A program made the position numbers and the translations under genes. This document shows, piece after piece, positions 26,342 through 44,199 of a stretch of DNA of 64,000 nt. The stretch is from Candidatus Hodarchaeaceae archaeon (GTDB taxonomy: Archaea > Hadarchaeota > Hadarchaeia > Hadarchaeales > Hadarchaeaceae). The notes beneath the pieces are model-generated. The model had not been told where the DNA came from, made no database searches, and saw nothing but the letters and a program-made list of their open reading frames with translations. The stretch spans positions 1-64,000 of the forward strand of contig JASEGJ010000003.1 of NCBI GenBank assembly GCA_030018135.1, read 5' to 3'. The number at the start of each line of letters is the position of its first letter. Within the stretch, counting starts at the first letter, position 1.

Positions 26342-26373
26342 GTGGTGTCTCCCTGCTCACGCTTGGTGATCGG

Positions 26374-26796
26374 TCACAGAATCTCAACTTTCCCTTCTTT
26401 GCTAACCATAATGCCGAAGTCTGTGAGGGCCTTTCTACGTTTGAGATTCTTCCTTCCAAGCGTTTCCGTTATCAGCCTCGTAAGCTCTGAATAATTACGA
26501 GTTATTTTGATCCCCCTCTCATCGGCTTTCCTGAACACCTGTTCTGAGACGCTGTAAACGTTGGATCCCGCCCTCACATCTATTTTGATCGGCCACTCGA
26601 TGGTCCCGATTAGCTTTAGAGTATTCCTAGCTCGTTCCACATTGCGTTCAGCGATTTTTATGATGCGGCTGACATTTGACCTGCTTGTTCCCAGCTCTTC
26701 CGCTATCTGCGTCAGACTCTTCCCTTCCCTCCTCCTTTTGAGCACCTCGAACTGCCTTCTTGTAAGATGGGTTTCCTTTATGTTAACCATTTTCAT
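26374..26796 (-). CDS. Tfx family DNA-binding protein
   Basis: T.LT.RQ.EVL..R..G.S...IA..LGTSR.NVS.I...A..NVE.ARNTL. Confidence 0.88.
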   Translation of the reverse strand: MKMVNIKETHLTRRQFEVLKRRREGKSLTQIAEELGTSRSNVSRIIKIAERNVERARNTLKLIGTIEWPIKIDVRAGSNVYSVSEQVFRKADERGIKITRNYSELTRLITETLGRKNLKRRKALTDFGIMVSKEGKVEIL

Positions 26797-27360: not shown

Positions 27361-27369
27361 GGTGAAGCA

Positions 27370-29466: not shown

Positions 29467-29486
29467 AAATTAGGCATGCCTAATTT
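29467..29486. promoter_or_regulatory. DtxR/MntR-type operator upstream of feoAB
   Basis: Perfect 20-bp palindrome AAATTAGGCATGCCTAATTT with a TTAGG-N4-CCTAA core, 15 bp before feoA; a DtxR-family gene follows feoB. Confidence 0.85.
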
Positions 29487-29501: not shown

Positions 29502-29735
29502 TTGAGAAAATTACTCGTTGAGCTAAGAGCGGGCGAGAGTGGCATCATTGCGGGCGTCACAGGCGGGTTTGGGTTGCAACGGCGTTTGGCAACTTTAGGG
29601 ATAAAAATCAACAAAAAAGTCCGAATGATCACTGCTCAACCGTTCAGGGGCCCTGTTGTCGTGGAAGTCGATGGGGCCCGTGTAGCAATCGGCATGGGAA
29701 TAGCTTGGAAGGTCCTTGTGGAGGTAACAAAGTGA
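29502..29735 (+). CDS. feoA: Ferrous iron transport protein A
   Basis: RRLATLGI, QPFRGPVVV.V.G.R.AIG.G.A.KV.VE. Confidence 0.93.
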   Translation: MRKLLVELRAGESGIIAGVTGGFGLQRRLATLGIKINKKVRMITAQPFRGPVVVEVDGARVAIGMGIAWKVLVEVTK

Positions 29736-31438
29736 GAATACTCCTCATGGGAAATCCAAACGTCGGTAAAAGTGTCGTTTTTTCAAGGCTGACAGGTACC
29801 AGCGTGGTCGTGTCCAATTACCCCGGTACCACAGTTGAGTTCACGAAAGGCACGATGAAGATTGGGGAAAAGAAAGCAGACGTAATCGACGTTCCGGGGA
29901 CCTATACCTTGGAGCCAACCACAAGGGCAGAAGAAGTCGCAGTTGAGATGCTTAAAGAAGGCGATGTGGTCATCGATATCGTCGACGCCACAAACTTGGA
30001 GAGAAACCTTTACTTAACGCTTCAGCTATTGGAAAAGAAAGTGCCTGTGATCGTGGCCCTCAACTTGTCGGACGAGGCCAAGCACAAAGGTATAACTATC
30101 GATGTCAAGAAACTCGAGAAATTATTAGACGTCCCAGTCGTTCCCACCGTTGCCATCACTGGAGAGGGGCTCAAAAAACTCGTTTCTCGCCTGCCTGAAG
30201 CCAAAGCACATGCTTACAGACACACCGACGAACAAAGATGGGAAAAAGTGGGCAAGATCGTTGAAGATGTCCAATCAGTAGCGCATCGACATCATACTTT
30301 GGCAGAAAGGCTAGGGGATGCAACCGTTAGGCCCTTAACTGGGATCCCAATTGCCATTGGAATAGTTACACTAATGTTCCTTGTGATACGATTCATCGGC
30401 GAGGGATTGATTGCCAATGTGTTTGATCCAGCGTTTGGGGCCTATGAACCCGTAGCGATGAGGATGAGCGAAGCATTAGGTTCTGGCGGCCTCCTCCATA
30501 ATATCGTAATCGGAAACCTGATCGATGGCGGGATAGACTTTACGCAGTCCATGGGCCTATTGACTACCGGGATTTTTGTCCCGTTCGCAATGGTTCTACC
30601 TTACGTGTTTGCGTTTTACTTGGTGCTGGGATTTCTCGAGGATAGCGGCTACTTACCAAGGCTAGGTGTACTTGTCGATAGTGGAATGCACAGGGTAGGG
30701 ATGCACGGCCTTGCGGTAGTGCCGATGTTGCTTGGCTTAGGGTGCAATGTCCCGGGAGCTCTTTCTTCCAGAATTCTCGAAACTCAAAGGCAAAGGTTCA
30801 TTGCCCTCACGCTCATGGGGATAGCAGTCCCATGCATGGCCCAGCTCGCCATAATCTTCGGGTTGGTAGGTCCCTATGGCATCGGAGCTCTGGCGATGGT
30901 CTTTGCAACACTTTTTGTGGTATGGGTGGTGATTGGGCTCTTGCTCAACAAGGTTTTGGCGGGCGAAAGTCCGGAGATGTTCACAGAAATTCCGCCTTAC
31001 CGCATGCCGTATTGGGGGGCAACATTGAAAAAGCTGTGGATGAGGATAAGGCACTTTTTGACCACGGCGATCCCCTTCGTGCTGCTGGGCGTACTTCTTG
31101 TGAATGTATTGTATACTTTGGGGATAATCGACTTCATGGGTGATATCGCATCCCCAGTTGTTGTTGGGTTGCTTGGGTTACCGCCGGCTGCGGCCGGAGC
31201 ATTGATAATAGGATTTCTGCGCAAAGATGTGGCTGTAGGGATGTTGCTGCCCCTCGGCCTGAGCATGCAACAGCTGGTAGTGGCCAGCGTGGTACTGGCG
31301 ATGTACTTCCCCTGTGTCGCAACCTTCGCCATCCTCTTCAAAGAGTTCGGGATAAAAGGCACGATAAAATCTACTTCAATTATGATCGGAATGGCGTTGC
31401 TAGTGGGGACTTTACTTAGACTTGTACTCGGTGTGTGA
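29732..31438 (+). CDS. feoB: Ferrous iron transport protein B
   Basis: [46 protein letters not shown]; GTG at 29732 overlaps the feoA stop. Confidence 0.96.
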
Positions 31439-31439
31439 G

Positions 31440-31868
31440 ATGCCATCGGTAAGTATCGACGAATATCTGGAAGTCCTGTGGACTCTACGGGTCGATAGAA
31501 ATCAGCCCGGAAAGATAAGGGATGTCGCAAAGTTATTAAAAATCGCGCCGCCAAGTGTGTTCCAAATGTTCGAAAAAATGAGAATGCAGGGGCTGATTAA
31601 ATATGACAAGCGCTCTGGGGCAGATTTCACACGAAAGGGAAAGAGGAGGGCCAGACATATTGTGAGAAGTCACAAGCTTGTGGAAAAACTCCTCGTTGAC
31701 ATCGTGGGCGTTAAACTCGGTGAGGTGGAACGTCCCGCTTGCGGCGCCGAGCATTATCTGCCAGAAGAAGTGGCTGATGCGATATGTATTTATTTGAAAC
31801 ATCCGCGCGAGTGTCCACACGGAGATCCGATTCCGAAGGGAAAATGTTGTCCTCAGAGGAAAGTTTGA
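31440..31868 (+). CDS. DtxR/MntR family metal-dependent transcriptional regulator
   Basis: DEYLE.L, IAPPSV..M, R.HKLVEKLL, AC..EH, P.ECPHG.PIP. Confidence 0.92.
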   Translation: MPSVSIDEYLEVLWTLRVDRNQPGKIRDVAKLLKIAPPSVFQMFEKMRMQGLIKYDKRSGADFTRKGKRRARHIVRSHKLVEKLLVDIVGVKLGEVERPACGAEHYLPEEVADAICIYLKHPRECPHGDPIPKGKCCPQRKV

Positions 31869-31937
31869 GGGCGCCGATATAGGACCATTGCACAAAAACC
31901 TATATTGGCACGAGTAATTCTCTTCTATGGGGTTAGC

Positions 31938-32285
31938 TTGTACCAATGGCGTCGCGGTCGGCGAGGGGGACCTGGAAGGCCGATGAAACCCAGGTTCTTG
32001 AGCTTCAGGCCCGAAGCGATAACGTTTATGCCATCCGCTCCAATAGGGCCACCAATCGCGGGCGAGCCGATCTACATGACTTATGACGAGTACGAGGCCT
32101 TTCGCCTGATTTATCACGAAGGGCTGAACCAGGAGGAGGCCGCCAAGCGGATGAAAATTTCGCGTGGGACGGTGTGGCGCTGCTTAGAGAGCGCGAGGAA
32201 TAAGGTTGCCTGCATGCTCGTCGAACGCCGCCCGCTCGTGGTCACGTCTGCACCTCCTCGACCTCCAGAGGAGACAGGCACTTGA
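31938..32285 (+). CDS. DUF134 family HTH protein
   Basis: GRP.K.R, F.P, DEYEAFRL....GL.QEEAA..M.ISRGT.WR.L..AR.K.A..LV; start uncertain (31905 or 31938). Confidence 0.9.
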   Translation: MYQWRRGRRGGPGRPMKPRFLSFRPEAITFMPSAPIGPPIAGEPIYMTYDEYEAFRLIYHEGLNQEEAAKRMKISRGTVWRCLESARNKVACMLVERRPLVVTSAPPRPPEETGT

Positions 32286-33121
32286 GCCAAGTCGATAGAA
32301 TACGGCTCACGGTTTTGGTTGACGATTCCAAGAACCCGATCAGACCCGAACTCACAGCCAAGCACGGGTTGTCCTTCTTCATCGAATTGAAAGCTGGCAG
32401 ACACACAACTAGTCTGTTGCTGGATACCGGGCCGTCCGCCGATGTTGTCCTACAAAACGCTCGGAAGCTCGACATCGATTTGAGGAAGGTGGATTCTATT
32501 TTCCTGAGCCACGGACATTACGACCATACCGGTGGGCTCTTGGGCGTCCTAAAACACATCGGCAAAAAGGTACCTGTGATAGCCCACCCAGAGGCGCTTG
32601 AGCCAAAATTTGCGAGGAGGAAGAAGCGTCTCAAAAAGGCCGGCATCCCTTTTCAAGTTTCAGAGTTGCAGAGATCGAGCGGCATCTTAACTCTAAAACG
32701 GGGGTCGACTTCCGTAGCGCCCGGAGTTTGGGTGAGCGGGGAAATCAAAAGAGTCAGCCCATTTGAAGAGGTAAAGGGGTTCAAGGTTATGAGGCGGGGC
32801 AAACTCGTAGAGGATTACATGCCGGATGATCAGGCTCTTTTCGTGAGGGTCAAGGGCAGGGGGCTGGTGGTCATCACGGGTTGCGCTCACGCGGGGTTGA
32901 TAAACACGATCAAGCAGGCGCAAAAGGTAACGGGTTCGAGCGGCGTGTATGCGGTCGTTGGTGGGTTTCACCTAGCTGGAGCAAGTGCGGGAAGGATAAA
33001 TGCAACCATTGAGGAGCTCCAGAAAGCTGGCGTGAAAGCTGTCATGCCATGTCACTGCACGGGAAAGAAGGCAATCACAAAGTTCTCGAAGGTCTTTGGA
33101 AAAAAAGTGCAACCAGCTTAG
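32282..33121 (+). CDS. MBL-fold metallohydrolase (COG1237-like); C-terminus possibly frameshifted
   Basis: HGLSF, LLDTG, LSHGHYDHTGG, DDQAL, ITGCAHAG, GGFHL, PCHCTG; A7 run near the 3' end. Confidence 0.9.
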   Translation: MSQVDRIRLTVLVDDSKNPIRPELTAKHGLSFFIELKAGRHTTSLLLDTGPSADVVLQNARKLDIDLRKVDSIFLSHGHYDHTGGLLGVLKHIGKKVPVIAHPEALEPKFARRKKRLKKAGIPFQVSELQRSSGILTLKRGSTSVAPGVWVSGEIKRVSPFEEVKGFKVMRRGKLVEDYMPDDQALFVRVKGRGLVVITGCAHAGLINTIKQAQKVTGSSGVYAVVGGFHLAGASAGRINATIEELQKAGVKAVMPCHCTGKKAITKFSKVFGKKVQPA

Positions 33122-33169
33122 AACAGGTAATGTAATCATTCTAAGCACCAAAAAGCTTTTATAGAATTA

Positions 33170-33183
33170 TGTGCAATAGCACA
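33170..33183. promoter_or_regulatory. Palindromic operator TGTGC-AATA-GCACA just downstream of BRE/TATA
   Basis: AAAAGCTTTTATAG (33151-33164) followed by the palindrome; related copies at 29420, 31881 and 38337. Confidence 0.6.
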
Positions 33184-33209
33184 AATAGTACAAATAGAGG
33201 TGGTAACGA

Positions 33210-33473
33210 ATGTGGTGGCCGGGTTTCGGCTGGGGTCGAGGCTGGTTTGGACCTTGGCCAGGCAGAGGGCCTTTTAGCTATCTGCCCCCATGGCAGAGAC
33301 CCGGGTGGTGGTTTGGTCGAGGAGCGTGCTGGTGGCTCTTCGGACCTTGGGCGTGGTCGATGTTCGGATACCCATGGAGTGGATACCTAGGAACCTACGG
33401 GTTTGCTCCGTACGCGATGCCACAGTACCCCTACCAAAGATACGTACCATACCCTTATCCGGGATACTGGTAA
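33210..33473 (+). CDS. Trp/Gly/Pro/Tyr-rich microprotein (DUF5320 N-terminal-like)
   Basis: GAGGTGG RBS; GPWPGRGPFSYLPPWQRPGW motif; 14 Trp and no Asp, Glu or Lys. Confidence 0.75.
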   Translation: MWWPGFGWGRGWFGPWPGRGPFSYLPPWQRPGWWFGRGACWWLFGPWAWSMFGYPWSGYLGTYGFAPYAMPQYPYQRYVPYPYPGYW

Positions 33474-33496
33474 ACAAACAAAAGGAGGTCAAAAGT

Positions 33497-33814
33497 ATGT
33501 GGTGGCCTAGAGGTTGGAGATGTTGGTGGTGGTATATGAATCCATACATGTACCCACCCTACCTACCATACGTGCAAGCGCCGCAGCAACCCTCGCAACC
33601 TGCGCCGCAACCCACGCAGCCCGCAACAGTACCTTACTACCCGCTCCCACCGTTCATGCCTCCTCCACCGACGCCCGAGCAAGAGATCGAAGCGCTGGAG
33701 GCATACAAAAGCGAGCTCGAAGAGGAACTCAAGGGCATCGAGGCGAGGATAAAAGAGTTGAGGGAGTCCCTAGGCAAAGGATCCAGCGGTCAACCATCTG
33801 AAACCGGAAAGTGA
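33497..33814 (+). CDS. DUF5320-like protein: Tyr/Pro/Gln-rich N-terminus plus C-terminal coiled coil
   Basis: GGAGG RBS, ATG at 33497 (MWWPRGW...), ends PEQEIEALEAYKSELEEELKGIEARIKEL. Confidence 0.8.
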   Translation: MWWPRGWRCWWWYMNPYMYPPYLPYVQAPQQPSQPAPQPTQPATVPYYPLPPFMPPPPTPEQEIEALEAYKSELEEELKGIEARIKELRESLGKGSSGQPSETGK

Positions 33815-33818
33815 TAAA

Positions 33819-34184
33819 TTGGGGCTTAAAGTGGCAGTTGCCACGAAGGGGCTCAAAAGCCTAGAGGATGAAGTATCAGATGTCTTCGGCAGAGCTCGAG
33901 CCTTTGCAATAGTCGAGACCGAGGGAGGTCAGATCAAGAACGCAAAAGCTGTGGAGAATCCCGCAGCTTCATACGAGTACGGAGCTGGACCGATAGTCAC
34001 AAAAATGCTCGCCGACATGGGAGTCGAGGTCGTGATCGCTGGCGAGTTCGGTATGGGGGTGTCAGTTCTCCTCAAGGATAAGAATATCCGTGCAGTCAAA
34101 GTTAGAGCTGGAACAAATGTCTGCCGGGCCGTGGATAGTGAATTAAGTGAGAAACAAACTTCGGAGCGATTGTCATGCGGGTAG
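33819..34184 (+). CDS. NifB/NifX family (COG1433) cluster-binding protein
   Basis: KVAVAT.G, VS.VFGRA..F.IV, ENP, GAG, GV.VVIAGEFG. Confidence 0.9.
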   Translation: MGLKVAVATKGLKSLEDEVSDVFGRARAFAIVETEGGQIKNAKAVENPAASYEYGAGPIVTKMLADMGVEVVIAGEFGMGVSVLLKDKNIRAVKVRAGTNVCRAVDSELSEKQTSERLSCG

Positions 34185-35053
34185 CCATCCCATCAAATAA
34201 GCCTGGCGGACTGGATGCTGCGGTCTCCCCCCATTTTGGTCGTTGTGATGTATTCACGATAGTTAAAATTGAAAATGGCAAGGTAGTGGATGTAAGCGTT
34301 GTTGAAAATCGAGGGACACATTTCGGCTTTGGAGCAACACCTGCGGAAATCTTGGTTTCGAACGGCGTAGATGCGGTATTAGCTCAGGGTATGGGACCTA
34401 AGGCCCTGCAGCTCTTGGCACAAAGCGGTATCACAACGTACATGGCCTCGGCTCAAACGGTTGGAGAGGCTGTGCGCGAGCTGGTCGAGGATAAGGTCAG
34501 GCTGGCTACAATCGAGGAAGCGTGCAAAGAAGCAAGAGAACCTTGGTTGCCTCCGGCCCCTATCATGCCCGGTGTGGGGATGGGGATGGGCCGTGGAATG
34601 GGAAGGGGGGGGAGAATGATGGGTCCCTCTCCTTATGGTCCCGCTTACCCACCGATGATCCCCCCAACGCCGTATCCTCCACAAATGCCGAAACCTTCTC
34701 CCCCACCAACAGGCCGCTTTAAAGTGGGCGTCGCAAGCCAGGGGCCAGGGGGACTCGACGACATGGTATCGCCGATCTTTGGCAGGTGCCCGAGCTTTAC
34801 CATCGTCGAGATCGAAGGGAGAGAAATTAAAAATGTAAAGGTGATACCGAATCAATTCGTTTCTACGCCTCGCGGTGTGGGAATCGCTGTGGTCCAGATG
34901 CTAGCAAGCGAAGGGGTGAAATTTATTTTGGCCGGACGATTTGGCCCTTGGGCATCCTCAACTTCTAGTCAATTCGATATCCAAATGGTCATGGTCCCGC
35001 CCGGCGTGAGGATTAGGGACGCTATCAACCAATACATCATCGGCTCACGCTAG
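34175..35053 (+). CDS. Tandem two-domain NifB/NifX family protein with Gly/Met/Pro-rich linker
   Basis: Two SPxFGRC domains joined by GMGMGRGMGRGGRMMG...PPTPYPPQMP. Confidence 0.9.
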   Translation: MRVAIPSNKPGGLDAAVSPHFGRCDVFTIVKIENGKVVDVSVVENRGTHFGFGATPAEILVSNGVDAVLAQGMGPKALQLLAQSGITTYMASAQTVGEAVRELVEDKVRLATIEEACKEAREPWLPPAPIMPGVGMGMGRGMGRGGRMMGPSPYGPAYPPMIPPTPYPPQMPKPSPPPTGRFKVGVASQGPGGLDDMVSPIFGRCPSFTIVEIEGREIKNVKVIPNQFVSTPRGVGIAVVQMLASEGVKFILAGRFGPWASSTSSQFDIQMVMVPPGVRIRDAINQYIIGSR

Positions 35054-35054
35054 G

Positions 35055-35960
35055 GTGCAGCGATTGAAGGAAATTGTGATCGCTAGTGGAAAGGGTGGAG
35101 TCGGTAAGACTACGGTCGCTGCATCGCTTGCAGTTTTTTTGGCCAAAGCCGGGACGAAAATCGTTGCAGCTGATGCAGATGTTGATGCACCGGATCTCTT
35201 GTTGGCGCTGGGTGGCGGAAAGACAATTTCCTCAACCGAGATCGAAGCTTCAGAAAAAGCGGTGGTCGACGGGTCGAAATGCACTGGATGTGGTAATTGC
35301 GTCAGCGCTTGCCCGTTCGGCGCGATTGTGGTGCAGAATCGTCGACCAACCGTTGTGCGGCTCATGTGTGAGGGTTGCGGCGTGTGCGAGGTTGTCTGCC
35401 CCGTCAACGCAGTTGAGGTGAAAAAGGCGGTGACGGGCACCCTGAAAATCGAGGATACTAAGTACGGATTCCCGTTGGTGACTGGGTACCTGAGGCTGGG
35501 CGAACACAATTCGGGGCACCTCGTAGCGAGCGTAAAAAAATCCGGGCGGAAGACGGCTGAGGATTTGGGGGCAAGGGCGCTCGTGGTCGACGCAGCGCCG
35601 GGTATAGGTTGCCCAGTGATCGCTTCGATCTCGGGAGCCAGCTATGTTATTGCTGTTACCGAGCCGACGCCTGCCGCCAAGCGGGACCTAGAACGCTTGG
35701 TCAAAATCATAAAACACTTCGGGGTCTCGGCGGGAGTGGTGATAAACAAGGCGAACCTCTCGGACGACTTCAGGGATGCGCTTGAGGACTGGGTAAAGCA
35801 TGTGCTAGGTTATCAAATTTTAGGCGAGATCCCCATCGACTACGAAGTTGTTAAAGCTCTGGTGAACATGGTGCCGGTCACTGAGTTTAATCCAAACGCT
35901 GAAGCATCGAAGATCTTGACTGCGATAGCCAAACGCGTGCGAGATGAGGTTTTACTATGA
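35055..35960 (+). CDS. MinD-like P-loop ATPase with inserted 2[4Fe-4S] ferredoxin (COG1149)
   Basis: SGKGGVGKT, DADVDAPD, CTGCGNC...CP, CEGCGVC...CP, DAAPGIGCP, VTEPT. Confidence 0.92.
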   Translation: MQRLKEIVIASGKGGVGKTTVAASLAVFLAKAGTKIVAADADVDAPDLLLALGGGKTISSTEIEASEKAVVDGSKCTGCGNCVSACPFGAIVVQNRRPTVVRLMCEGCGVCEVVCPVNAVEVKKAVTGTLKIEDTKYGFPLVTGYLRLGEHNSGHLVASVKKSGRKTAEDLGARALVVDAAPGIGCPVIASISGASYVIAVTEPTPAAKRDLERLVKIIKHFGVSAGVVINKANLSDDFRDALEDWVKHVLGYQILGEIPIDYEVVKALVNMVPVTEFNPNAEASKILTAIAKRVRDEVLL

Positions 35961-36910
35961 AACCCGGCGGGGAGGTGTCAGCGAAAGTGCTCAGGAAAAA
36001 GAGCGTGAGCGTGCCCATGATAGCAGTCACCGGCGGAAAGGGCGGCACGGGCAAAACCACGGTTGCGGTGAATTTGGCCGTGGGGTTGAGTTTGAAAGGC
36101 TCTAAGGTCATGCTGGTCGATGCCGACGTTGACTGCCCCTGTTGCGCGATGTTGCTCGGAACCGAACTGAATGCTAGCGAGGAAGTCAGAGTATTTAAGC
36201 CAGTGATCGATGCGGCGAAGTGCACTGGATGTGGAAGGTGTGTGGAAGTCTGTCGGGAACATGCATTGGTAGGGCTTGAGGGGCAAGTCCCATCACTTTT
36301 CGAAGAACTTTGCTCCGGGTGTAAAGCGTGTCAGCTCGTTTGCGAAGCCGGCGCCATGAAGAGCGGTCAGAAAGTTCTCGGTACCATCTACGTCGCAGAT
36401 TCAAATGGGATTAAACTGGTGGTGGGCGAACTCAAACCGACCGAGCCGAGGTCGCCGATCGTGGCGCGCGCGACCATGCTCAAAGCCGCTGAGGAGCTTA
36501 AGCTTGACAAACACGATATCGTAATCGTGGACACCGCTCCGGGGATTCATAACGTGGTGGCTCAAGCCCTTTGGGAAGCCGACCTAGCGCTGGCTGTGAC
36601 TGAGCCGACCCCACTCGGAGCTCACGATCTGGGATTCATGTTAGACCTCACCGAGGAACTGGGGTTGCCGACCGAGGTCATCCTGAACAAGGCCGACATC
36701 CCAAGCGGTTTGAAGGATAAGGTGGTGAAGACGAGCCGTGATCGGGGAGTTAAAATCGTTGCGGAGATACCGATGGACGAAGAGCTGTTGCGCTCCTACG
36801 TTTCGGGTGAGCCGCTCGTGAGAAAATCACCCAAGAGCCCAGCTGCAGCTGCAATGTTAACTCTGGTTCCGCACATTCGTGAAATGTTTGTAAAGGGAGG
36901 TGAAACCTGA
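35957..36910 (+). CDS. MinD-like P-loop ATPase with inserted 2[4Fe-4S] ferredoxin (COG1149), second paralog
   Basis: GGKGGTGKTT, DADVDCP, CTGCGRC...C, CSGCKAC...C, VTEPTPLG.HD; true start may be downstream (about 36017). Confidence 0.92.
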   Translation: MKPGGEVSAKVLRKKSVSVPMIAVTGGKGGTGKTTVAVNLAVGLSLKGSKVMLVDADVDCPCCAMLLGTELNASEEVRVFKPVIDAAKCTGCGRCVEVCREHALVGLEGQVPSLFEELCSGCKACQLVCEAGAMKSGQKVLGTIYVADSNGIKLVVGELKPTEPRSPIVARATMLKAAEELKLDKHDIVIVDTAPGIHNVVAQALWEADLALAVTEPTPLGAHDLGFMLDLTEELGLPTEVILNKADIPSGLKDKVVKTSRDRGVKIVAEIPMDEELLRSYVSGEPLVRKSPKSPAAAAMLTLVPHIREMFVKGGET

Positions 36911-37119
36911 TGGCGCAACCACCCACCCCACCACCGCTGCCAACTAAAAAGTTTCAATGTTTTGCCTGCGGGAACATCATAGAGGTGCCTCAGGGGATAC
37001 CCAAGCCACCAGCGTGCTCTAGGTGCGGCGCTCCGGCGGTAATGATTCATCGTGTTGACAAGGGGCCGCCGGGTGGAAGACGCGGCGCTGCGGGCCCACC
37101 TTGGGCTCAGCAAGGCTGA
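36910..37119 (+). CDS. Small Zn-ribbon/rubredoxin-like protein
   Basis: FQCFACG...EVP.G..KP..CSRCG; GGAGGTGA RBS; overlaps the upstream stop. Confidence 0.7.
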   Translation: MAQPPTPPPLPTKKFQCFACGNIIEVPQGIPKPPACSRCGAPAVMIHRVDKGPPGGRRGAAGPPWAQQG

Positions 37120-37204
37120 TTTAGTTGGGCCGTGGAACCAAAATCACTGAAAGAAGGGATAGATGTTTACGGCAAGGAGAAACTACAAAAATTGGTGAAT
37201 AAGA

Positions 37205-38053
37205 GTGAGGATCTATTTAGATTGCATCCCGTGCTTCGTGAGGCAGGCTTTGGAAGCGAGCAAGATGGCTACGAGGAACAAAAACAAACAAGAAAAAGTC
37301 TTGAAGAAAGTTTTATCTGAGATTGGGAAAACTTCGTTAAAAAACAAGATACCATCTGATATTGCTCATAAAGTTCACCGCATAATCAGAAAAATGACAG
37401 GGAATAACGATCCTTACAAGAAATTGAAAGACCAGTGCAACAGAAAAGCGCTGAGGATGTACCCGGACCTTAAACAAAAGGTCGCTGGGTCTAAAGATAG
37501 ATTGCTGACGGCGACAAAACTCGCCATAGCTGGAAACATTATCGATTTTGGGCCCGGTTCTGAGTTCAATCTGGAGAAAACAATAGAGGAAGTTCTAGTT
37601 CAGGATTTCGCTATAAATCATTTTAATCGGCTTAGGGAAGCGTTGCAAAAATCTGAAAAGATTGTATATTTAGGAGACAATGCAGGTGAGATAGTTTTCG
37701 ATCGGATTCTCTTGGAAGAATTGAAGGATAAAGAGATCACATTTGTGGTCAAAGGAGGGCCCATCATAAATGATGCAACGGTCGAAGATGCAAAATTCGC
37801 TGGCATAGACAAAATTGCTGAGATTAAAACAATAAGCAATGGGGAGCCTGGCACGGGGCCGAAGAGAAATTCAAAGGAATTTACAAATTTCTTAAAAAGC
37901 GCCGATGTCGTGATTAGCAAAGGGCAGGGAAACTATGAAGCCTTAAGCGAAGTGAACGCGAACATATTCTTCTTGCTCAAGGTGAAGTGCCCAACGATTG
38001 CTGGGGATATCGGAGTTAAAATTGGTGGTATCGTCGTAAAACAATCGTGTTAG
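37205..38053 (+). CDS. DUF89/ARMT1-like damage-control phosphatase
   Basis: DCIPC..RQ, DPY...K, AIAGNIIDFG, DNAGEIVFD, PIINDAT, KGQGNYE.LS. Confidence 0.92.
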   Translation: MRIYLDCIPCFVRQALEASKMATRNKNKQEKVLKKVLSEIGKTSLKNKIPSDIAHKVHRIIRKMTGNNDPYKKLKDQCNRKALRMYPDLKQKVAGSKDRLLTATKLAIAGNIIDFGPGSEFNLEKTIEEVLVQDFAINHFNRLREALQKSEKIVYLGDNAGEIVFDRILLEELKDKEITFVVKGGPIINDATVEDAKFAGIDKIAEIKTISNGEPGTGPKRNSKEFTNFLKSADVVISKGQGNYEALSEVNANIFFLLKVKCPTIAGDIGVKIGGIVVKQSC

Positions 38054-38073
38054 TTGGTTGAGGCGATCCCAAG

Positions 38074-38238
38074 ATGTCGGAGACCAAGCTCGTGAGCGCC
38101 TGCCTTTTTGGGGTCAACTGTAGTACGACGGTCAAAACAACTTTAACGAGAAAGACAAATGCTTGAAGGTCAGGCGGCAGCGCTCCGGCAGCAATTGGAT
38201 CAATCAAGAAGAGGCTTGAAGAGCTCAGCAAAATGTAG
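38074..38238 (+). pseudogene. Fusion scar: DUF523 (TudS-like) 5' fragment plus DUF5320-like coiled-coil 3' fragment
   Basis: MSETKLVSACLFGVNC/YDG (1-nt shift), then MLEGQAAALRQQLDQ/KKRLEELSKM* (1-nt shift). Confidence 0.6.
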
Positions 38239-38360
38239 GGCCCAATCGTCTTATCAATGAGTCCGACAACAGGGGTGAAAAAGTGCTACGATAAGTGTGT
38301 AGCCTCATCTTGAATCAGCTGGATACACATTTATTTTGTGCAATCGCCAGAAAAAAATGA

Positions 38361-39218
38361 ATGGTGGGGCAAGTAGAAGAAAGGATGAAAGAAATACAGG
38401 AACAGGAAAGGCGCCTCAAAATACGGATGGCCAAAATCAAGTATAAACTGGCGATACTGAGTGGAAAGGGCGGGGTCGGCAAGAGTACCATCACCGCTAA
38501 TTTAGCCATTGCTTTTGCACGCAAGGGTCACAAGGTGGGTGTTTTGGATGTTGATATTCACGGCCCGAGTATTCCCAAAATACTCGGCATGAGGGGGCAG
38601 GAGTTGACTGCAGGGCGGCTTGAAGGTGTGGGCATCTTTCCGGCCAAAGGTCCGCTCGACATCAAAGTCATCTCCATGGATTTCCTCCTCCCAGATGACG
38701 AAACCCCGGTTATTTGGCGCGGTCCGATGAAGATGGGTGCGATCAGGCAATTTTTGGCGGATGTGGCGTGGGGTGACTTGGATTTTCTGTTTATTGATGT
38801 CCCGCCAGGAACTGGGGACGAGCCGCTCAGCTTGATGCAATTGTTGCCAGACATCACGGGTGTCATCGTAGTAACTGCACCATCCGAGGTTTCTCAGATC
38901 GTCGTCAAGAGAGCAGTAGGATTTACAAGGGAGCTGCACGTGCCGGTGGTTGGCATCGTAGAGAACATGAGTGGGTTCGTTTGTCCAAAATGTGGTGCAG
39001 AATTCGACATTTTAGGAACTAGTGGTGGGCAAAAAATATCAGAGCAACTTGGCATCCCATTTTTGGGCAAGATTCCAATCGATCAAAAGATATGTGAGGA
39101 TTCAGACAGGGGAACGCCTTTCGTCATCGAGCGTGCTGAAACTCCGGCGGCTAAGGCCTTCATGCGAGTGGTTGATAAAGTGGAGGGGTATTTAAAACAA
39201 CTGGGAGTGCGGGCTTGA
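38361..39218 (+). CDS. mrp: Mrp/NBP35 (ApbC) Fe-S cluster carrier ATPase
   Basis: SGKGGVGKST, DVDIHGPS, VIWRGP, DVPPGTGDE, ENMSGFVCPKC. Confidence 0.95.
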   Translation: MVGQVEERMKEIQEQERRLKIRMAKIKYKLAILSGKGGVGKSTITANLAIAFARKGHKVGVLDVDIHGPSIPKILGMRGQELTAGRLEGVGIFPAKGPLDIKVISMDFLLPDDETPVIWRGPMKMGAIRQFLADVAWGDLDFLFIDVPPGTGDEPLSLMQLLPDITGVIVVTAPSEVSQIVVKRAVGFTRELHVPVVGIVENMSGFVCPKCGAEFDILGTSGGQKISEQLGIPFLGKIPIDQKICEDSDRGTPFVIERAETPAAKAFMRVVDKVEGYLKQLGVRA

Positions 39219-39973
39219 TCGTCGACGAGTTATTGGGTCTGGTCGGGGAGCGGAGAAGCCAGCTAGAAGACCTGACGCTCTCGAGGGTATGCGTGAGCCT
39301 CTGCTATACCGCGGTGATGCTCGATAACGGCTACGTTGGGCTCTGCCACACGCCTACCGAGGACATTGCACACACTCATTGGGGCCGCAGGCGGGACTTC
39401 CACGGCTTCAAGGCCTTGGAAATCACGCGCCTGGCGAATTCGCTTGACATGATTGAGAGGACCGTTGGCATAGCGGCATTGAACGCCCTCTCACAGTACC
39501 TGATGGACTCTGAAGGTTATGAGCGGCAGTTTGGAATGGACGCCTTTAATGCGATAGATGTAAAGGAGGAAGACAGCGCCGCGGTGGTTGGGTACATGAG
39601 GCCCCTAGTCGGGAAGCTGAGGGCAAAGGCCCGCGAAGTCCACGTTTTCGAACGCAACCCCCAATTGAGGGGGGATGCCCTGCCTGATACTTTTGTCGAC
39701 TCGATATTGCCGAAAGCGGATATCGTGGTTATAAGCGGGTCGAGTTTAGTCAATGGAACCCTTGATAGGTTGCTGGAGCTATCCAAAAGAACTAGATTCG
39801 TGATTTTTGCAGGGCCAACGGCCAGCACTTTACCAGAGCCTCTTTTCAAGCGGGGTGTAAGCGTCGTGGCGGGCGTTCGCGCGAAAGGTCCTAAGGTGAT
39901 GGGTGCAGTAGCCGAGGCCAAACCATTCGTGGCATTCAAACAGCTTGTGGAGAAGTATATTTTAAGGAGATGA
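39215..39973 (+). CDS. DUF364 (COG2014) family protein
   Basis: YTAV.L..G..G, GIAALNALSQ, VVGYM.P, FERNP, ISGSSLVNGT, GPTAS. Confidence 0.88.
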   Translation: MIVDELLGLVGERRSQLEDLTLSRVCVSLCYTAVMLDNGYVGLCHTPTEDIAHTHWGRRRDFHGFKALEITRLANSLDMIERTVGIAALNALSQYLMDSEGYERQFGMDAFNAIDVKEEDSAAVVGYMRPLVGKLRAKAREVHVFERNPQLRGDALPDTFVDSILPKADIVVISGSSLVNGTLDRLLELSKRTRFVIFAGPTASTLPEPLFKRGVSVVAGVRAKGPKVMGAVAEAKPFVAFKQLVEKYILRR

Positions 39974-39993
39974 AAACAGCCTAAGGGGTAAGA

Positions 39994-40602
39994 GTGAATC
40001 GGCTTAAGCACATCGCTGCAGAGCTCAAAGAGCATGCACCTTTCACCGCTTTTGGAGCGGGCGTAGGGATGGTTGTAATGGCTGTTGTGTGTCTAACCAA
40101 ACCCGACCCAGAGGTCTCTCACCACACCTTCCACGTCCTGCATCCCGCCCACATGCTACTGAGCTCGATCGTGACCGCCGCGATGTTCAGGCTGCATAGG
40201 AGGGGTGTCAGATCCTCGATAGTCGTCGGACTCGTGGGAGCAGCGGGAATATGCGCGATAAGTGACATATTGTTCCCCTACGTGGGAGGTACTTTGCTCG
40301 GGGCTAGGATGACTTTGCACGTGTGCCTCTTAAAGCACCCGTGGCTCGTGCTTATACCAGGAGTCGTTGGCGCGACAATTGGTGCCCTTACACGCCGCCC
40401 TACCAAGTGCCCGCACGCGGCGCACGTGCTAATAAGCACCCTCGCATCGCTCTTCTACCTCATGGCGTTTGGGGTGGTGGATTGGCTCCCGGTGTTTCCG
40501 CTCGTATTCGTGGTACTGTTCATAGCGGTATGGATCCCATGTTGCACCAGTGATATCGTGTTTCCCCTCTTGTTCGTGAGGGAAGGGAGGCATCGGAGGT
40601 GA
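39994..40602 (+). CDS. Conserved His/Cys-rich multi-pass membrane protein (putative metal transporter)
   Basis: LKEHAPFT, FH.LHP.H, C..SD..FPY, HVC..KHPW, PH..HVLIST, W.PCC.SDIVFP. Confidence 0.75.
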   Translation: MNRLKHIAAELKEHAPFTAFGAGVGMVVMAVVCLTKPDPEVSHHTFHVLHPAHMLLSSIVTAAMFRLHRRGVRSSIVVGLVGAAGICAISDILFPYVGGTLLGARMTLHVCLLKHPWLVLIPGVVGATIGALTRRPTKCPHAAHVLISTLASLFYLMAFGVVDWLPVFPLVFVVLFIAVWIPCCTSDIVFPLLFVREGRHRR

Positions 40603-40606
40603 CCTC

Positions 40607-41002
40607 GTGGACGAATTGGATGAAATACGCAAGAGGGGGATGAAAGAGCTGATGCGGAAATATTTGGGGAAAAAGGAAGCGTTTGGCAAACCCATTCAGG
40701 TCACGGACGAAACATTCGACCGAGTCATCAAGGCCCATCCCGTAGTCGTGGTGGACTTCTGGGGTGAGTGGTGCCCGCCATGTCGCTTAATCGCGCCAAT
40801 CATCGAGGAGCTCGCAAGGGATTACGCAGGAAAGGTGATATTCGGGAAGCTGAACGTCGATGAGAACAAAGCTACCGCGGTGAGGTATGGTATAACGGCG
40901 ATCCCGACCTTACTGATTTTTAAGAACGGTAAGCTGGTCGACCAAGTGCTCGGCGCTGTGTCGAAGCGGCACTTGGAGGAAAAAATTAGAAAAACGATTT
41001 AA
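40607..41002 (+). CDS. trxA: Thioredoxin
   Basis: VVDFWGEWCPPCR, KLNVDEN, IPTL; N-terminal DELDEIR. Confidence 0.93.
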   Translation: MDELDEIRKRGMKELMRKYLGKKEAFGKPIQVTDETFDRVIKAHPVVVVDFWGEWCPPCRLIAPIIEELARDYAGKVIFGKLNVDENKATAVRYGITAIPTLLIFKNGKLVDQVLGAVSKRHLEEKIRKTI

Positions 41003-41006
41003 AGCT

Positions 41007-41369
41007 CTAACTGAGTCCCTTCATCGCATCCATCGCCACCTTCGTGTAGGCCAGCGCAGGACCACCGCCCATCACTATCGCCATGAAGCAAGCCTCGATT
41101 ATTTCGTCCTTCGTCGCCCCCGCCTCTATCGCCTTCTTCACGTGGGTCGCTATGCACCAGTCGCATCCCCTGACGATCCCCGCGGCCAGCGCTATCAGCC
41201 GCTTCACCTTGGCGGAAAGGGCTCCCTCTTCAAAGGCGTGCCTCAGGAACACGTTGAACTGTCCTCCGACTTTCGGGGATATCCTCCCTAGCTCTTCGGC
41301 TGTTTCCGCCAGTTCCTTTACCAGCCTAACGGCTTCTCCTCCTTCCATCTCGATCACCCCCTTTAACAC
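41007..41369 (-). CDS. Carboxymuconolactone decarboxylase/AhpD family protein
   Basis: GALS.K.K.LIALA, CDWCIATH, GAT.DEI.EA, MGGGPA. Confidence 0.9.
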   Translation of the reverse strand: MLKGVIEMEGGEAVRLVKELAETAEELGRISPKVGGQFNVFLRHAFEEGALSAKVKRLIALAAGIVRGCDWCIATHVKKAIEAGATKDEIIEACFMAIVMGGGPALAYTKVAMDAMKGLS

Positions 41370-41440
41370 CTATAGGCTACTGTTAAATCGTCAAATGAGT
41401 TCTTATTAACCTTTGAGAACGTCGGCGAAAAGGGGAAAAC

Positions 41441-42019
41441 ATGGTAAATTGTGTATCTTGCGTGGAAAAAGCGTGTTCAAGAGGGAACCCATGCCCAGTC
41501 GGCGAACCTTTGAAAAAATTTGCATTCAAATTCAAGGAATACCGCAAAGCGGGCAACTTGAAGCTCTATCAAAAATCCAGCTCGCTAGAAGTCGAAGGGT
41601 ACATGAGATACCCCCGGGTGAAAGAACCCATCCGGCTGGCAGAGGGGATGGGCTGGAATAAACTGGGGATGGCCTTTTGCATAGGTCTTTCGGAGGAGGC
41701 GAAGAAGCTGCAGGAGGTACTGAAGTGCACGGTTTTGAAGTTCATTCGGTTGTGTGTAAAGTTGGTGGCGTTGAGAAGGAAAAATTCTCTTCCCGAAAGG
41801 AAAAGATCACGCATGCAATCCAATTCTCCAAGCGATGGTCCTCAACGAGGTTGGAACGGATTTGAACGTCATCGTGGGTCTTTGCATCGGCCACGACACC
41901 TGTTCCAGCGGTATTCGAAGGCTCCGACGACGACGCTCATAGTCAAGGATCGAGTACTGGCTCACAATCCGGTCGGGGCCCTCTACTCGAGATACCACTT
42001 CAAAAAGTTGTTGCGGTAG
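41441..42019 (+). pseudogene. DUF1847 family metal-binding protein, multiply frameshifted
   Basis: PRV.E..RLA...G..KLG.AFCIGL..EA in frame 1; HGFEV.SVVCKVG and [22 protein letters not shown] in other frames; KDRVLAHNP back in the first frame. Confidence 0.8.
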
Positions 42020-42025
42020 GAGAGG

Positions 42026-42814
42026 TTGAGCGATAATTTCAGAGAGGTAATCTACGGCCCGGTTTTCTCTTGGCGGCTTGGCAGATCTCTGGGAGTAGAC
42101 CCGATTTGCGCCGAGGGGAAAATCTGTTCATTCGATTGTGTGTATTGCTCTCTCGGTCGGACCGCGATGAAAACCGTCGACCGCAGAACCTTTGTCCCGG
42201 CGAAAACTGTGGAGCGAGCCCTTGGAGAAGCGCTGAAAAGTGTCAAGGCGGATGTCATAACTTTTTCTGGAACGGGTGAGCCGACACTCGCCAAAAACTT
42301 GGGTGAACTCATAGAGGTCGCTAAAGAATCCTCCGATCTCCCGGTCGCGGTTTTAACGAATTCCTCCCTCCAATTCAGGAAGGATGCGAGAAAAGAACTC
42401 GCAAAGGCGGACATCGTGAAAGGCAAACTGGATGCTCAAAACGATGAACTTCTCAAACGGATAAATCGTCCGCACGAGAAAATTTCGTTCTCTGAAATCA
42501 TAGCGGGTTTGAAAAAATTCCGAAAGGAGTTCACCGGAAGGTTCGCGATAGAGGTGATGTTCGTCCCGGAAAACAAGGATTTTTCGGGCGAGATCGCGGA
42601 AATTGTGGAAACAATAGAGCCGGATGAGGTCCAGATTAACACCCCTCTCAGACCGAGTCCCGCAACACCGCTTACCCGAGAGGAGTTGGAGAAAGTCGAG
42701 AAAAGCTTTCGGGGTTTGAATTGCAGGTCCGTTTACAAAGCTAGAATCCCGGCAAGACGCTACCTAAAAGTCTTGGGAGCGGAAAAAATAAGACGGCTCA
42801 AACGAGTCGATTGA
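42026..42814 (+). CDS. Radical SAM protein (COG0731-like)
   Basis: YGPV.SWRLGRSLGVD, CSFDCVYC.LG, TFSG.GEPTL, LTNSSL, INRP. Confidence 0.9.
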   Translation: MSDNFREVIYGPVFSWRLGRSLGVDPICAEGKICSFDCVYCSLGRTAMKTVDRRTFVPAKTVERALGEALKSVKADVITFSGTGEPTLAKNLGELIEVAKESSDLPVAVLTNSSLQFRKDARKELAKADIVKGKLDAQNDELLKRINRPHEKISFSEIIAGLKKFRKEFTGRFAIEVMFVPENKDFSGEIAEIVETIEPDEVQINTPLRPSPATPLTREELEKVEKSFRGLNCRSVYKARIPARRYLKVLGAEKIRRLKRVD

Positions 42815-43140
42815 TTACTTGGGTTCGTTGGTGCCAAGAATAAAATCCGAGCCCCGCCTTTCTCTCCTCTTCCCGTCTCCCACTAGCAAAGAGTCGAACA
42901 CCACTGATCGACAATTTTCTCCAAGCCTTCCCTTTCGTCGATATCAATGCCGCCACACGAGCCGCCTGGGCTTTACTCTGCACGAGGATCACGCCTGCCC
43001 TTTCGAGTTTTCTTCGTTGCACCGATAGGTTTTGCGGATCGCGGGGTGTGTCAAATCGAGGCGACAATGCTCAAGTGCCCCTTCTCTGCCCCCACGGCAT
43101 GCTTTGCTTCACCGATCGCTTTTGCGAGTTCATCCGCTGG
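42798..43140 (-). pseudogene. FdrA (acyl-CoA synthetase-like) C-terminal remnant
   Basis: DELAKAIGEAK...LSIVASI, then (shifted) TPRDPQNLSVQRRKLERAGV.LV.S.AQAAR.AALI, resembling the FdrA C-terminus. Confidence 0.6.
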
Positions 43141-43434
43141 GTTTTAAAGGCCTCTCGGATGGAGTGGCATGTGCTTTTGCTCGGGCCAAAACCTTCACGA
43201 TCCTCGATGTAGGGGGCAGAAAGGTTCAGGTGAAAGTCATCGCCAACCGGCAATTTCTGCGAGCGCGGCCGCGGACGGGCGGTAGTTCAAATGCTTTCGG
43301 AGGAGGGCGTGGATGTTGCGATCGCGGGCGAGTTCGGCCCGGGGGCGGCGGCATTTCTCCAAAAGAATAGAATCGACACGGTCGTGGAAAAAGCCGGCAC
43401 TAAGGTTGTCGACTTGCTGAGGGGCAAATATTGA
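43140..43434 (+). pseudogene. NifB/NifX family gene, 5'-truncated and frameshifted
   Basis: GLSDGV..AFARAKTFTILD, then (shifted) VVQMLSEEGVDVAIAGEFGPGA...GTKV.DLL; no start codon. Confidence 0.7.
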
Positions 43435-43518: not shown

Positions 43519-44184
43519 CTACCATCGACTTTCTTTAACGAGTCGGTGGGCCATCCTCACGTGCATGTCCGCAGACTCCTCGACGACCGGCCCGTGGCCG
43601 GGAAGCAGCTTCTGCACCTCCAGTCTAGCCAACCTCCGCAGCGATTTCAGCATTGCCGCCGCGTCGCCCGTCGGCAAATCAACGCGCCCGATGCCTTCAC
43701 AGAAAACAGTGTCCCCCGAGAAGAGGAGCCGCTGCTTTGGCTCGTACAGGCATATGCTACCCAGCGTGTGGCCAGGAGTATGCAACACCTCGAGCTTGAG
43801 TTTACCGAGCTTAATGCGGTCGCCCTCGCGTAACTCCCGCGCAACCTCCATTGGCCCCAACCTTCCACCGAAGCCTCCTGCTAGCGTGATAGTTTGATCC
43901 CCCTTCCGAAGCAGCTCCGCCTCGAGCTCATGGATCGACACCTCGCAGCCCGCAGCGACGAAATCCCGGTCGCCGCCAGCGTGATCGAAGTGGCAGTGGG
44001 TGTTGATGATGAGTTCGATGTCGCCCGGCTTCAGGTTAAAATCGGCCAGATTTCGTTTGACCGACTCGAAGTTCATGCCCGTGCCCGCGTCGATGAGCGC
44101 TACGGTCTCGTCGATGATCAAGTAGATATTCGAGTCGAATCCAAAACCACCTATACTGTGCACCTCTGCCAATTTCACCGCCAA
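43519..44184 (-). CDS. MBL-fold hydrolase (glyoxalase II-like)
   Basis: THCHFDHAGG, HTPGHT.GS, LFSGD, LPGHG. Confidence 0.9.
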   Translation of the reverse strand: MAVKLAEVHSIGGFGFDSNIYLIIDETVALIDAGTGMNFESVKRNLADFNLKPGDIELIINTHCHFDHAGGDRDFVAAGCEVSIHELEAELLRKGDQTITLAGGFGGRLGPMEVARELREGDRIKLGKLKLEVLHTPGHTLGSICLYEPKQRLLFSGDTVFCEGIGRVDLPTGDAAAMLKSLRRLARLEVQKLLPGHGPVVEESADMHVRMAHRLVKESRW

Positions 44185-44199
44185 AATACGGATGGTGGG

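Follow-up and report, generated by a model that had tools for sequence, protein, structure and literature searches.

The window analyzed here, which comprises the first 64 kb of contig C33 in a 1.108-Mb genome assembly (45 contigs, 92.9% complete), carries an 11.5-kb run of mostly co-oriented genes that encode NifX-type carriers, two ferredoxin-bearing MinD-family ATPases, and an Mrp/NBP35-type iron-sulfur (Fe-S) carrier ATPase, along with a DUF134 regulator, several enzymes, and a number of small peptides (Table 1). Judged by its proteins, this locus is a Hadesarchaeal, archaeal member of the orange protein (ORP)-type cluster of anaerobes, which has been described and is functionally unsolved, and it adds little that is new in kind. 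The original prediction, in which the run was an undescribed system, is thus not borne out: the second domain of the double NifX protein (residues 183 to 290) matches the structure of the Desulfovibrio gigas orange protein (2wfb, E 1.7e-8); the best NCBIfam model for the Mrp gene is MrpORP (NF041136; 348.8 bits over positions 1 to 249 of 365, with a cut-off of 450), parts of which also match NifX proteins; and true MrpORP proteins (557 and 510 bits against the same cut-off) are encoded beside orthologous ATPase pairs at two other loci (L018 and L035).

In Desulfovibrio vulgaris Hildenborough, the ORP complex consists of Orp3 (DVU2103), Orp4 (DVU2104), Orp5 (DVU2105), Orp8 (DVU2108), and Orp9, or MrpORP (DVU2109); Orp3 and Orp4 resemble each other and each contain two [4Fe-4S] motifs, Orp8 is the NifX-like orange protein, purification of Orp3 "systematically" brings down Orp4 and Orp8, and these proteins receive Fe-S clusters from MrpORP in vitro (PMC6345978). 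The physiological role of the complex was still termed unclear in 2021, ten years past its description (PMC8359166). By homology, the two ATPases of the window correspond to Orp3 and Orp4, its NifX domains to Orp8 and relatives, and its Mrp to the P-loop part of MrpORP; for the ATPases, the link was made with an alignment of 14 sequences, with Orp3 and Orp4 being matched by their described motifs and not by the DVU sequences themselves. Both systems cluster paired MinD-type ATPases bearing two [4Fe-4S] motifs with NifX (Di-Nase) carriers and an Mrp/NBP35 protein, and both are found only in anaerobes. They differ in that the window has a DUF134 helix-turn-helix protein and a TATA-proximal palindrome in place of sigma-54 promoters and the OrpR activator (a sigma-54 activator adjoins the ATPase pair at four bacterial loci, and none was found among the window ORFs scanned); in that its Mrp, which has the CPKC motif, lacks both a fused C-terminal NifX (Di-Nase) domain and an N-terminal cysteine motif; in that a Gly/Arg/Pro linker joins two of its NifX domains; and in the addition, within an archaeal host, of Trp-rich peptides, a Zn-ribbon peptide, and MBL, DUF89, DUF364, DUF1847, and radical SAM genes. 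The literature located on these accessory families and on the combination of NifX with MinD-ferredoxin ATPases covers the ORP system, DUF364 structure and enzymology, and fitness work in Methanococcus maripaludis, with nothing found on the extended gene set.

Homology further indicates that the ATPases are paralogous members of the MinD family, one of each ancient type, each with two [4Fe-4S] clusters: both contain GKGGxGKT and two CxxCxxCxxxC motifs. Across 32 type-1 and 33 type-2 proteins from many phyla, the invariant features are the deviant Walker A motif, including its signature lysine; the Walker B aspartate; all eight ferredoxin cysteines of type 2; and seven of those of type 1 (the eighth is present in at least 90% of sequences). 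Cys186 (PGIGCPV), seven residues past the Walker B aspartate, is invariant in the 32 type-1 sequences, and at least 90% of type-2 proteins have the switch-II cysteine, the spacing of which is probably equivalent to that of a cluster ligand in NifH. ATPase 2 of the window possesses an additional DCPCC motif around residue 60. The nearest folds to an AlphaFold model of ATPase 1 (pLDDT 96.4) are MinD, FleN, and FlhG, followed by Soj, NifH, HypB, and ApbC; the structure search found no solved structure spanning the whole ATPase family. As with NifH and its NifX/NifEN partners (and the related BchL and CfbC), we are presumably dealing with dimeric Fe-S ATPases of the SIMIBI class that adjoin NifX-type carriers. 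Unlike in NifH, the clusters reside in an inserted ferredoxin domain rather than at a Cys97/Cys132 bridge, the match to TIGR01287 amounts to 38 bits versus a cut-off of 394, and the genome has no NifDK/NifEN-type partner. A complex prediction from alignments of ATPase 1, ATPase 2, and the single-domain NifX protein scored 0.00 against a mark of 0.32, a result with no bearing on binding either way.

The locus holds three intact PF02579 (NifX) domains, and there are none elsewhere in the genome. Within the single-domain NifX family, residues F23, G24, P48, G55, G57, P58, and L64 are invariant and no Cys or His is conserved, a pattern in keeping with noncovalent binding of the ligand, which has been reported for the orange protein and suggested for IssA. 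The Mrp protein shares a deviant Walker A motif and a CxxC motif with the Mrp/NBP35/ApbC carriers; it differs in being the sole strong PF10609 match in its genome, and for this reason its role may extend beyond the ORP-type complex to the whole cell. Because SufB/D is encoded just beyond the window and a cysteine-desulfurase-like gene is present in the genome, the ORP-type cluster is not the only Fe-S route available to this organism.

The association of NifX with the ATPase pair extends well beyond this genome. A scan of one genome per species returned at least 520 relatives, of which the best 80 stretches, equivalent to 78 loci, were kept; together with the loci of six relatives from the same order, 84 loci were classified. 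A ferredoxin-bearing MinD ATPase was called in 51 of them, and removal of two Mrp-like false calls (L086 and L090) left 49 loci, with the 33 loci lacking such an ATPase serving as controls. NifX was present at 46 of the 49 ATPase-pair loci and at none of the controls (two of the three NifX-free loci, L033, L039, and L051, are contigs of <4 kb), and it is beyond doubt that this core association is not due to chance. The association of accessory genes is weaker, and, with families counted by hidden Markov models (HMMs) built on the window's proteins from few sequences each and from crude open reading frame (ORF) calls, their percentages are rough: DUF134 was found at 18 ATPase-pair loci, DUF89 at 11, radical SAM at 10, DUF364 of either paralogue type at 6 (four loci with the type situated at 39215-39973 and three with the second type, DUF364b), DtxR at 3, DUF1847 at 2, and thioredoxin at 1, all of them being absent from the controls, whereas MBL (14 of 49) and the combination of FeoA and FeoB (8 of 49) each occurred at 2 of 33 controls. 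Mrp was present at 19 ATPase-pair loci, but the controls had been chosen for Mrp and are uninformative in this respect. Neither the CMD protein nor the His/Cys membrane protein was found at any ATPase-pair or control locus.

ATPase-pair loci are spread over many anaerobic phyla of bacteria and archaea, such that the ORP cluster is widespread in both domains, and they include very small genomes and many lifestyles; 26 of the 39 classifiable loci encode one type-1 and one type-2 ATPase. Unbiased clustering of neighboring genes (counted in loci) recovered DUF5320 (17), TrmO_N-like proteins (7), Zn_ribbon_8 peptides (6), CoA-disulfide-reductase-like flavoproteins (6), a methyltransferase (6), Fur (4), and peroxiredoxin (4). 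An apparent link between DUF134 and NifX in this clustering came through other fusions, and no DUF134-NifX fusion exists among the ORFs examined.

Among 30 relatives from the same order, full-length paired ATPases are present in six, just one of which belongs to the 18 genomes of the same family. NifX domains follow this distribution: each of the seven pair-bearing genomes (including that of the window) has two to four, and of the 24 without the pair, 18 have none and six have one. Gene order is shuffled among the six relatives' loci; the set that recurs consists of NifX, the two ATPases, DUF134, Mrp, MBL, DUF364, DUF1847, and radical SAM. MBL is present at three of the six loci; DUF364 adjoins the ATPase pair in G030 and G027 and persists as a 31-aa remnant in G007; DUF1847 adjoins the pair in G024 and at survey locus L062; and radical SAM homologues of 58 to 60% identity lie beside the cluster in G028 and G027. 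The Zn-ribbon peptide occupies the equivalent position in G007 and G028, with Zn_ribbon_8 peptides at six more loci. The cluster of G028 (L012) also includes FeoA, FeoB, DtxR, a Trp-rich peptide, DUF5320, and a Zn-ribbon, and the stretch orthologous to the 87-aa peptide of the window is 75% identical over 36 aa. At the locus of G007 (L011, contig C57, 1066-3429), the closest cluster-bearing relative, a serine-dehydratase-alpha-like gene replaces DUF89, Mrp, and most of DUF364 and is followed by a ZIP metal transporter; of DUF364 only the 31-aa end remains, and the Zn-ribbon gene is truncated. These loci and the counts given above agree with the original prediction that the families recur together in anaerobes.

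The same comparisons draw a clearer line between core, recurrent accessories, and mere neighbors, which is one contribution of this locus. MBL, DUF89, DUF364, DUF1847, and radical SAM are recurrent accessories that are less frequent than the core. Thioredoxin and CMD, by contrast, have no recurrent tie to the cluster (1 of 49 and 0 of 84 loci, respectively, with other thiol-redox genes in a minority of loci) and are probably mere neighbors. As such, the 11.5-kb run does not form the single unit that had been envisaged. The His/Cys membrane protein was likewise rejected as a component and is a local neighbor: of the six relatives with the ATPase pair, none encodes it, whereas 13 of the 24 that lack the pair do, and it belongs to a conserved block of its own. 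In relatives, it follows DUF364b, and in G013 and G003 the block is compact (TFX–DUF364b–membrane protein–MBL2–radical SAM). In the window, the block is split, with TFX and DUF364b at 25559-26796 on the other strand and MBL2 and a second radical SAM gene at 43519-45291; because these two parts flank the ORP-type genes on either side, the latter lie within a broken-up conserved backbone. Given the split backbone and the patchy distribution, the cluster appears either to have been gained in this genome or to have been lost from most relatives. DUF364b itself (25559-26341, minus strand) adjoins TFX and a split ArsP_1-type permease pair (26836-27921), and DUF364 proteins are repeatedly paired with membrane transporters (in the window and at L098, L099, L097, and L014).

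A further feature of these loci concerns tail modules rich in Gly/Arg or Trp, which some genomes fuse to NifX and others keep apart from it. At 18 of the 49 ATPase-pair loci, there are NifX proteins that carry extended Gly/Arg/Met/aromatic runs, and many of them end in a DUF5320-type coiled coil; stand-alone DUF5320 proteins occur at 17, and either form at 27. Some NifX-tail proteins continue into a Zn-ribbon (L021) or into a 2x[4Fe-4S] domain (L018 and L062). In the window, the tail modules take the form of two Trp-rich peptides, of the Zn-ribbon peptide's tail, and of an internal linker in the double NifX protein. This linker contains 20 Pro, 11 Gly, 8 Met, and 3 Arg among its 58 aa, with GMGMGRGMGRG repeats and an isoelectric point (pI) of 10.4. 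The 105-aa protein scores 24.4 bits against PF17253, which is under the cut-off of 27 and covers profile positions 63 to 99 alone, but its C-terminal coiled coil aligns to those of 11 DUF5320 proteins (hhalign probability 97.7%, E 1.6e-12, 42 columns); it differs from that family in having a Trp/Pro/Tyr-rich segment instead of an N-terminal MPGGDGTGP...GR motif and Gly/Arg repeats. These fusions argue for a single assembly in which NifX domains work together with the tails, the coiled coils, the Zn-ribbons, and the ferredoxin-ATPases. At two loci, a gene next to the ATPase pair encodes a CDF-like membrane domain that continues into a C-terminal NifX domain (L031, 19534-20757, from a deltaproteobacterial metagenome-assembled genome [MAG], and L057, 10164-11450, from a Methanobacterium MAG).

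This layout recalls IssA of Pyrococcus furiosus, in which a NifX domain is followed by a tail that is Pro-rich and then cationic, aromatic, and Gly-rich; the tail, the conserved character of which is Trp, Gly, and Arg, has been proposed to hold anionic thioferrate by charge (PMC5524996). Common to both is a NifX (IPR003731) domain without Cys ligands, and the unstructured segments of the window resemble the Pro-rich and cationic, aromatic, Gly-rich IssA tail in composition. They differ in that the IssA tail is C-terminal and the segments of the window are an internal linker or separate peptides; in addition, IssA is not reported to require ATPases (PMC5524996). We infer from composition, not from alignment, that the tail modules of the window function like the IssA tail.

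The locus further provides a clean case from the archaea in which a candidate operator can be defined. Comparison of k-mers among intergenic regions identified a TGTGCAAT box, which is present in five copies in the window versus 1.55 expected (one of 100 shuffles reached five). Genome-wide, there are 18 sites, four of which fall within this 7.5 kb. Only three of the sites are clearly intergenic, namely those that directly follow the TATA-like boxes of DUF134, the core operon, and Mrp, and the core-operon copy is part of a perfect palindrome. The palindrome at the head of the core operon is the sole zero-mismatch match to TGTGCAATAGCACA in the window; with mismatches allowed, the motif is unenriched, which leaves the core-operon site alone as a full operator. 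In G028, a TATA element and a TGTGCAAT-AACACA arrangement precede the orthologous peptide gene. From these sites, DUF134 probably controls the cluster through the candidate TGTGC-N4-GCACA site. No TGTGCAAT box was seen upstream of DUF89 or of the DUF1847-radical SAM pair. The regulon was also considered as a route to a client enzyme, and the sole outside candidate among the 18 genomic sites (C22:19425) was dropped, as it lies inside a 201-aa ORF on the opposite strand. Upstream of feoA, a second palindrome, AAATTAGGCATGCCTAATTT, is a candidate operator that probably serves the DtxR-type repressor encoded past feoB. It looks like a putative DtxR/IdeR box, and its 14-bp core has no second match in the window even at three mismatches.

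Our best reading of the ORP-type complex, and one to which we would give an even chance, is the storage and hand-over of Fe-S material. Under this reading, the NifX domains would hold an inorganic, anionic Fe-S species without Cys ligands, be it a cluster or an IssA-like thioferrate polymer, and the cationic and aromatic Gly/Arg/Trp-rich segments (the double NifX linker, the two Trp-rich peptides, and the Zn-ribbon tail) would help to hold it. The ATPase heterodimer, through ATP-driven dimer cycling and its ferredoxin domains, would load, reduce, or release Fe-S material, and Mrp would move [4Fe-4S] clusters to or from the ATPase-NifX complex. DUF134 would repress at least the core operon by way of the site behind its TATA box, and probably its own unit and the Mrp unit as well, while the adjacent FeoAB would supply iron and DtxR would sense it. 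The iron context consists of the FeoAB-DtxR genes adjoining the cluster in the window and in G028, of Fur and DtxR at four and three loci, respectively, and of the two CDF-NifX fusions. Of the ATP-driven cluster machine fed by FeoAB that had originally been predicted, ATP-dependent handling of Fe-S or metal sulfide, supplied through iron uptake, remains the most plausible reading; the link to FeoAB itself is only weakly enriched. If storage and release is indeed the function, it would supply a missing piece in the account of how strict anaerobes acquire, store, and distribute Fe-S clusters. A bolder version, which we regard as rather doubtful, is a store-and-dispense machine in which NifX/IssA-like carriers and detachable Trp/Gly/Arg tails (DUF5320 and the peptides) hold a thioferrate-like polymer that an Orp3/Orp4-type heterodimer, driven by ATP and ferredoxin, mobilizes reductively into [4Fe-4S] clusters for Mrp, with DUF134 repressing all of these genes. 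If true, sulfidic anaerobes would have a way to obtain Fe-S clusters without cysteine desulfurase, and the long-standing question of what the orange protein complex does would be answered.

Several observations weigh against the storage of Fe-S material as the function. The ORP complex has no established function, and its authors favor a link to cell division (PMC8359166, PMC3897727); moreover, the sole cofactor described on an orange protein is a molybdenum (Mo)-copper sulfide cluster and not Fe-S (PMC6345978). The likeness to the IssA tail is compositional only, and the peptides of the window are rich in Trp, Pro, and Tyr with few Arg (5 of 87 residues in the first of them). All 82 homologues of the single-domain NifX protein (97 to 147 aa) are without a tail, as is the window's own. 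In ATPase 2 of the window and in that of its closest relative, G007 (L011), the switch-II Cys is replaced by Asn. The iron link provided by gene neighborhood is weak (FeoA with FeoB at 8 of 49 versus 2 of 33 loci, Fur at four, and DtxR at three), and the survey percentages are rough, coming as they do from small family HMMs and from the top 80 stretches among 520 or more relatives. A degenerate operator search allowing two mismatches yielded 28 matches in the window versus 24 expected and hence no enrichment. Finally, the locus may be partly eroding, in that a fourth NifX gene and a DUF5320 remnant have decayed.

Alternatively, the cluster could be a dedicated maturation line for the cofactor of some client enzyme, as first suggested for this run, with NifH-like ATPases and NifX-like carriers building a metallocluster and the radical SAM, MBL, DUF364, DUF1847, and DUF89 proteins making or trimming an organic ligand. 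The recurrence of precisely these genes in shuffled order (radical SAM at 10 of 49 loci, MBL at 14, DUF89 at 11, DUF364 of both types at 6, and DUF1847 at 2) is in keeping with such a line, and a DUF364 enzyme has been shown to cyclize a derivative of S-adenosylmethionine (PMC12930334), making small-molecule chemistry plausible. Yet each accessory gene is present at under one third of loci, the cluster is found in very small genomes of many lifestyles, and a scan of 142 same-strand neighbors within 6 kb at 43 loci found no enzyme family at more than about two loci. The nitrogenase D/K family (PF00148) has no match in the 92.9% complete genome, which upholds the original statement that no nitrogenase client is present and, like the other points, renders a cofactor line unlikely. 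The handling of Mo or tungsten (W) thiometalates for pterin enzymes, with NifX-like proteins binding Mo/W-sulfide and the ATPases processing it for tungsten enzymes, would accommodate the [S2MoS2CuS2MoS2] cluster bound by the orange protein (PMC6345978) and the presence of DUF364 in a modABC operon of M. maripaludis, where it shows cofitness with nifH (bioRxiv 10.1101/2024.03.05.583561). In addition, the 1.1-Mb genome has nine AOR-family genes, one of them in the window at 61801-63711, and the best NCBIfam match of the radical SAM enzyme, although weak (40 bits versus a cut-off of 380), is a tungsten-cofactor maturase. AOR copy number is, however, uncorrelated with cluster presence (9, 2, 1, 0, 3, 3, and 4 copies with the cluster versus 0 to 11 without), and AOR was discarded as the client; a Mo-cofactor gene was encountered only once among the 142 scanned neighbors (MoeA, L037), no gene for molybdate or tungstate transport was noted next to the window's cluster, and we place this reading below the cofactor line.

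A role in positioning or cell division, as proposed for the Desulfovibrio ORP complex, has in its favor that the nearest folds to the ATPase are MinD, FleN, and FlhG, that loss of OrpR leads to morphological defects, that MrpORP is polar, and that the orp operons are putatively involved in septum positioning (PMC8359166, PMC6345978, PMC3897727). Such a role leaves the invariant ferredoxin inserts, the NifX carriers, Mrp, and the links to iron regulators unexplained; the scans of the window revealed no MinC- or MinE-like gene, and an Fe-S defect could underlie the morphological phenotype. We consider it the least probable of the four readings, which in rough order of their odds are Fe-S storage and hand-over, the cofactor line, Mo/W handling, and positioning.

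Gene families were assigned by scanning 27 ORFs against Pfam and 21 against NCBIfam, with motifs taken from the translations, in which the catalytic and ligand motifs of the run's proteins are intact. Every family named in the original prediction was found at its place, to which we add two small genes rich in Trp, Gly, Pro, and Tyr, the AhpD/CMD gene, and the broken fourth NifX gene. The ORP-type cluster occupies approximately 0.5 to 1% of the 1.1-Mb genome.

Table 1. Coordinates of genes, gene remnants, and candidate regulatory sites at the ORP-type locus and in the iron genes directly upstream
Feature	Position	Strand	Evidence or context
Perfect 20-bp palindrome AAATTAGGCATGCCTAATTT	29467-29486		16 nt before feoA; candidate DtxR-type operator; context, not core
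feoA	29502-29735	+	Pfam; directly upstream of the run, co-oriented
feoB	29705-31438	+	Pfam
DtxR/IdeR-type repressor	31422-31868	+	Pfam
TGTGCAAT box	31887-31894	-	4 nt past TATA-like GATATAGG, upstream of DUF134
DUF134 (UPF0251) helix-turn-helix protein	31905-32285	+	PF02001, 65.7 bits versus threshold of 27
MBL-fold metallo-hydrolase, TM1679-like	32282-33121	+	HGHYDH motif; 3h3e match, E 6.8e-34
Perfect palindrome TGTGCAATAGCACA (TGTGC-N4-GCACA)	33170-33183		Just past TATA-like TTTTATAG, head of core operon
Trp-rich 87-aa peptide	33210-33473	+	14 Trp, 16 Gly, 15 Pro, 11 Tyr, 5 Arg, no acidic residues; pI 9.6
105-aa DUF5320-like protein	33497-33814	+	Trp/Pro-rich N terminus, C-terminal coiled coil; Shine-Dalgarno-like AAAGGAGGT just 5′ of the gene
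Single-domain NifX-like carrier	33819-34184	+	PF02579, 57 bits
Double NifX protein	34175-35053	+	Two PF02579 domains joined by 58-aa linker
ATPase 1, type-1 MinD/CbiA family with inserted 2x[4Fe-4S] ferredoxin domain	35055-35960	+	Pfam, motifs
ATPase 2, type-2 paralogue	35957-36910	+	Pfam, motifs
Zn-ribbon peptide, 69 aa	36910-37119	+	CxxC...CxxC, Gly/Pro/Arg tail; start codon overlaps ATPase 2 stop codon
DUF89/ARMT1 damage-control phosphatase family	37205-38053	+	PF01937, 246 bits
Gap between DUF89 and Mrp			308 bp
Relic of DUF5320-type coiled-coil end, frameshifted	38159-38238	+	LEGQAAALRQQLDQ / IKKRLEELSK in two frames; by-eye three-frame translation of the gap before Mrp
TGTGCAAT box	38337-38344	+	Directly past TATA-like ATTTATTT, 17 nt before Mrp start codon
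Mrp/NBP35 (ApbC-type) Fe-S carrier ATPase	38361-39218	+	PF10609, 322 bits; SGKGGVGKST deviant Walker A, CPKC
DUF4213+DUF364 protein	39215-39973	+	Pfam; 3npg match, E 3.6e-27
202-aa membrane protein	39994-40602	+	13 His and 6 Cys
Thioredoxin	40607-41002	+	WCPPC; Pfam/NCBIfam
AhpD/CMD-family protein	41007-41369	-	Pfam; absent from the original prediction
DUF1847 protein, Cys-rich N terminus	41441-42019	+	PF08901, 69.5 bits
Radical SAM enzyme, 262 aa	42026-42814	+	CSFDCVYC; no named family
Fourth NifX-like gene, broken	~43146-43434	+	At least 2 frameshifts; pieces in two frames, further shift upstream; end of the stretch

Genes for a tRNA-intron endonuclease, TFX, and an A-type ATP synthase identify the window as archaeal, and for a single gene the closest named homologue is from a Hadesarchaea MAG (86% identity). 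Elsewhere, the nine AOR (tungstopterin) paralogues are distributed over contigs C1, C17, C19, C33, C42, and C45, and the copy in the window is preceded by a polyferredoxin gene (61362-63711 for the two together). A HemN/HemW-like radical SAM gene (28112-29386) separates the permease pair from the iron genes and directly precedes feoA. The window also codes for a 498-aa tyrosine recombinase of the phage integrase family (4583-6079), which adjoins the A-type ATP synthase operon.

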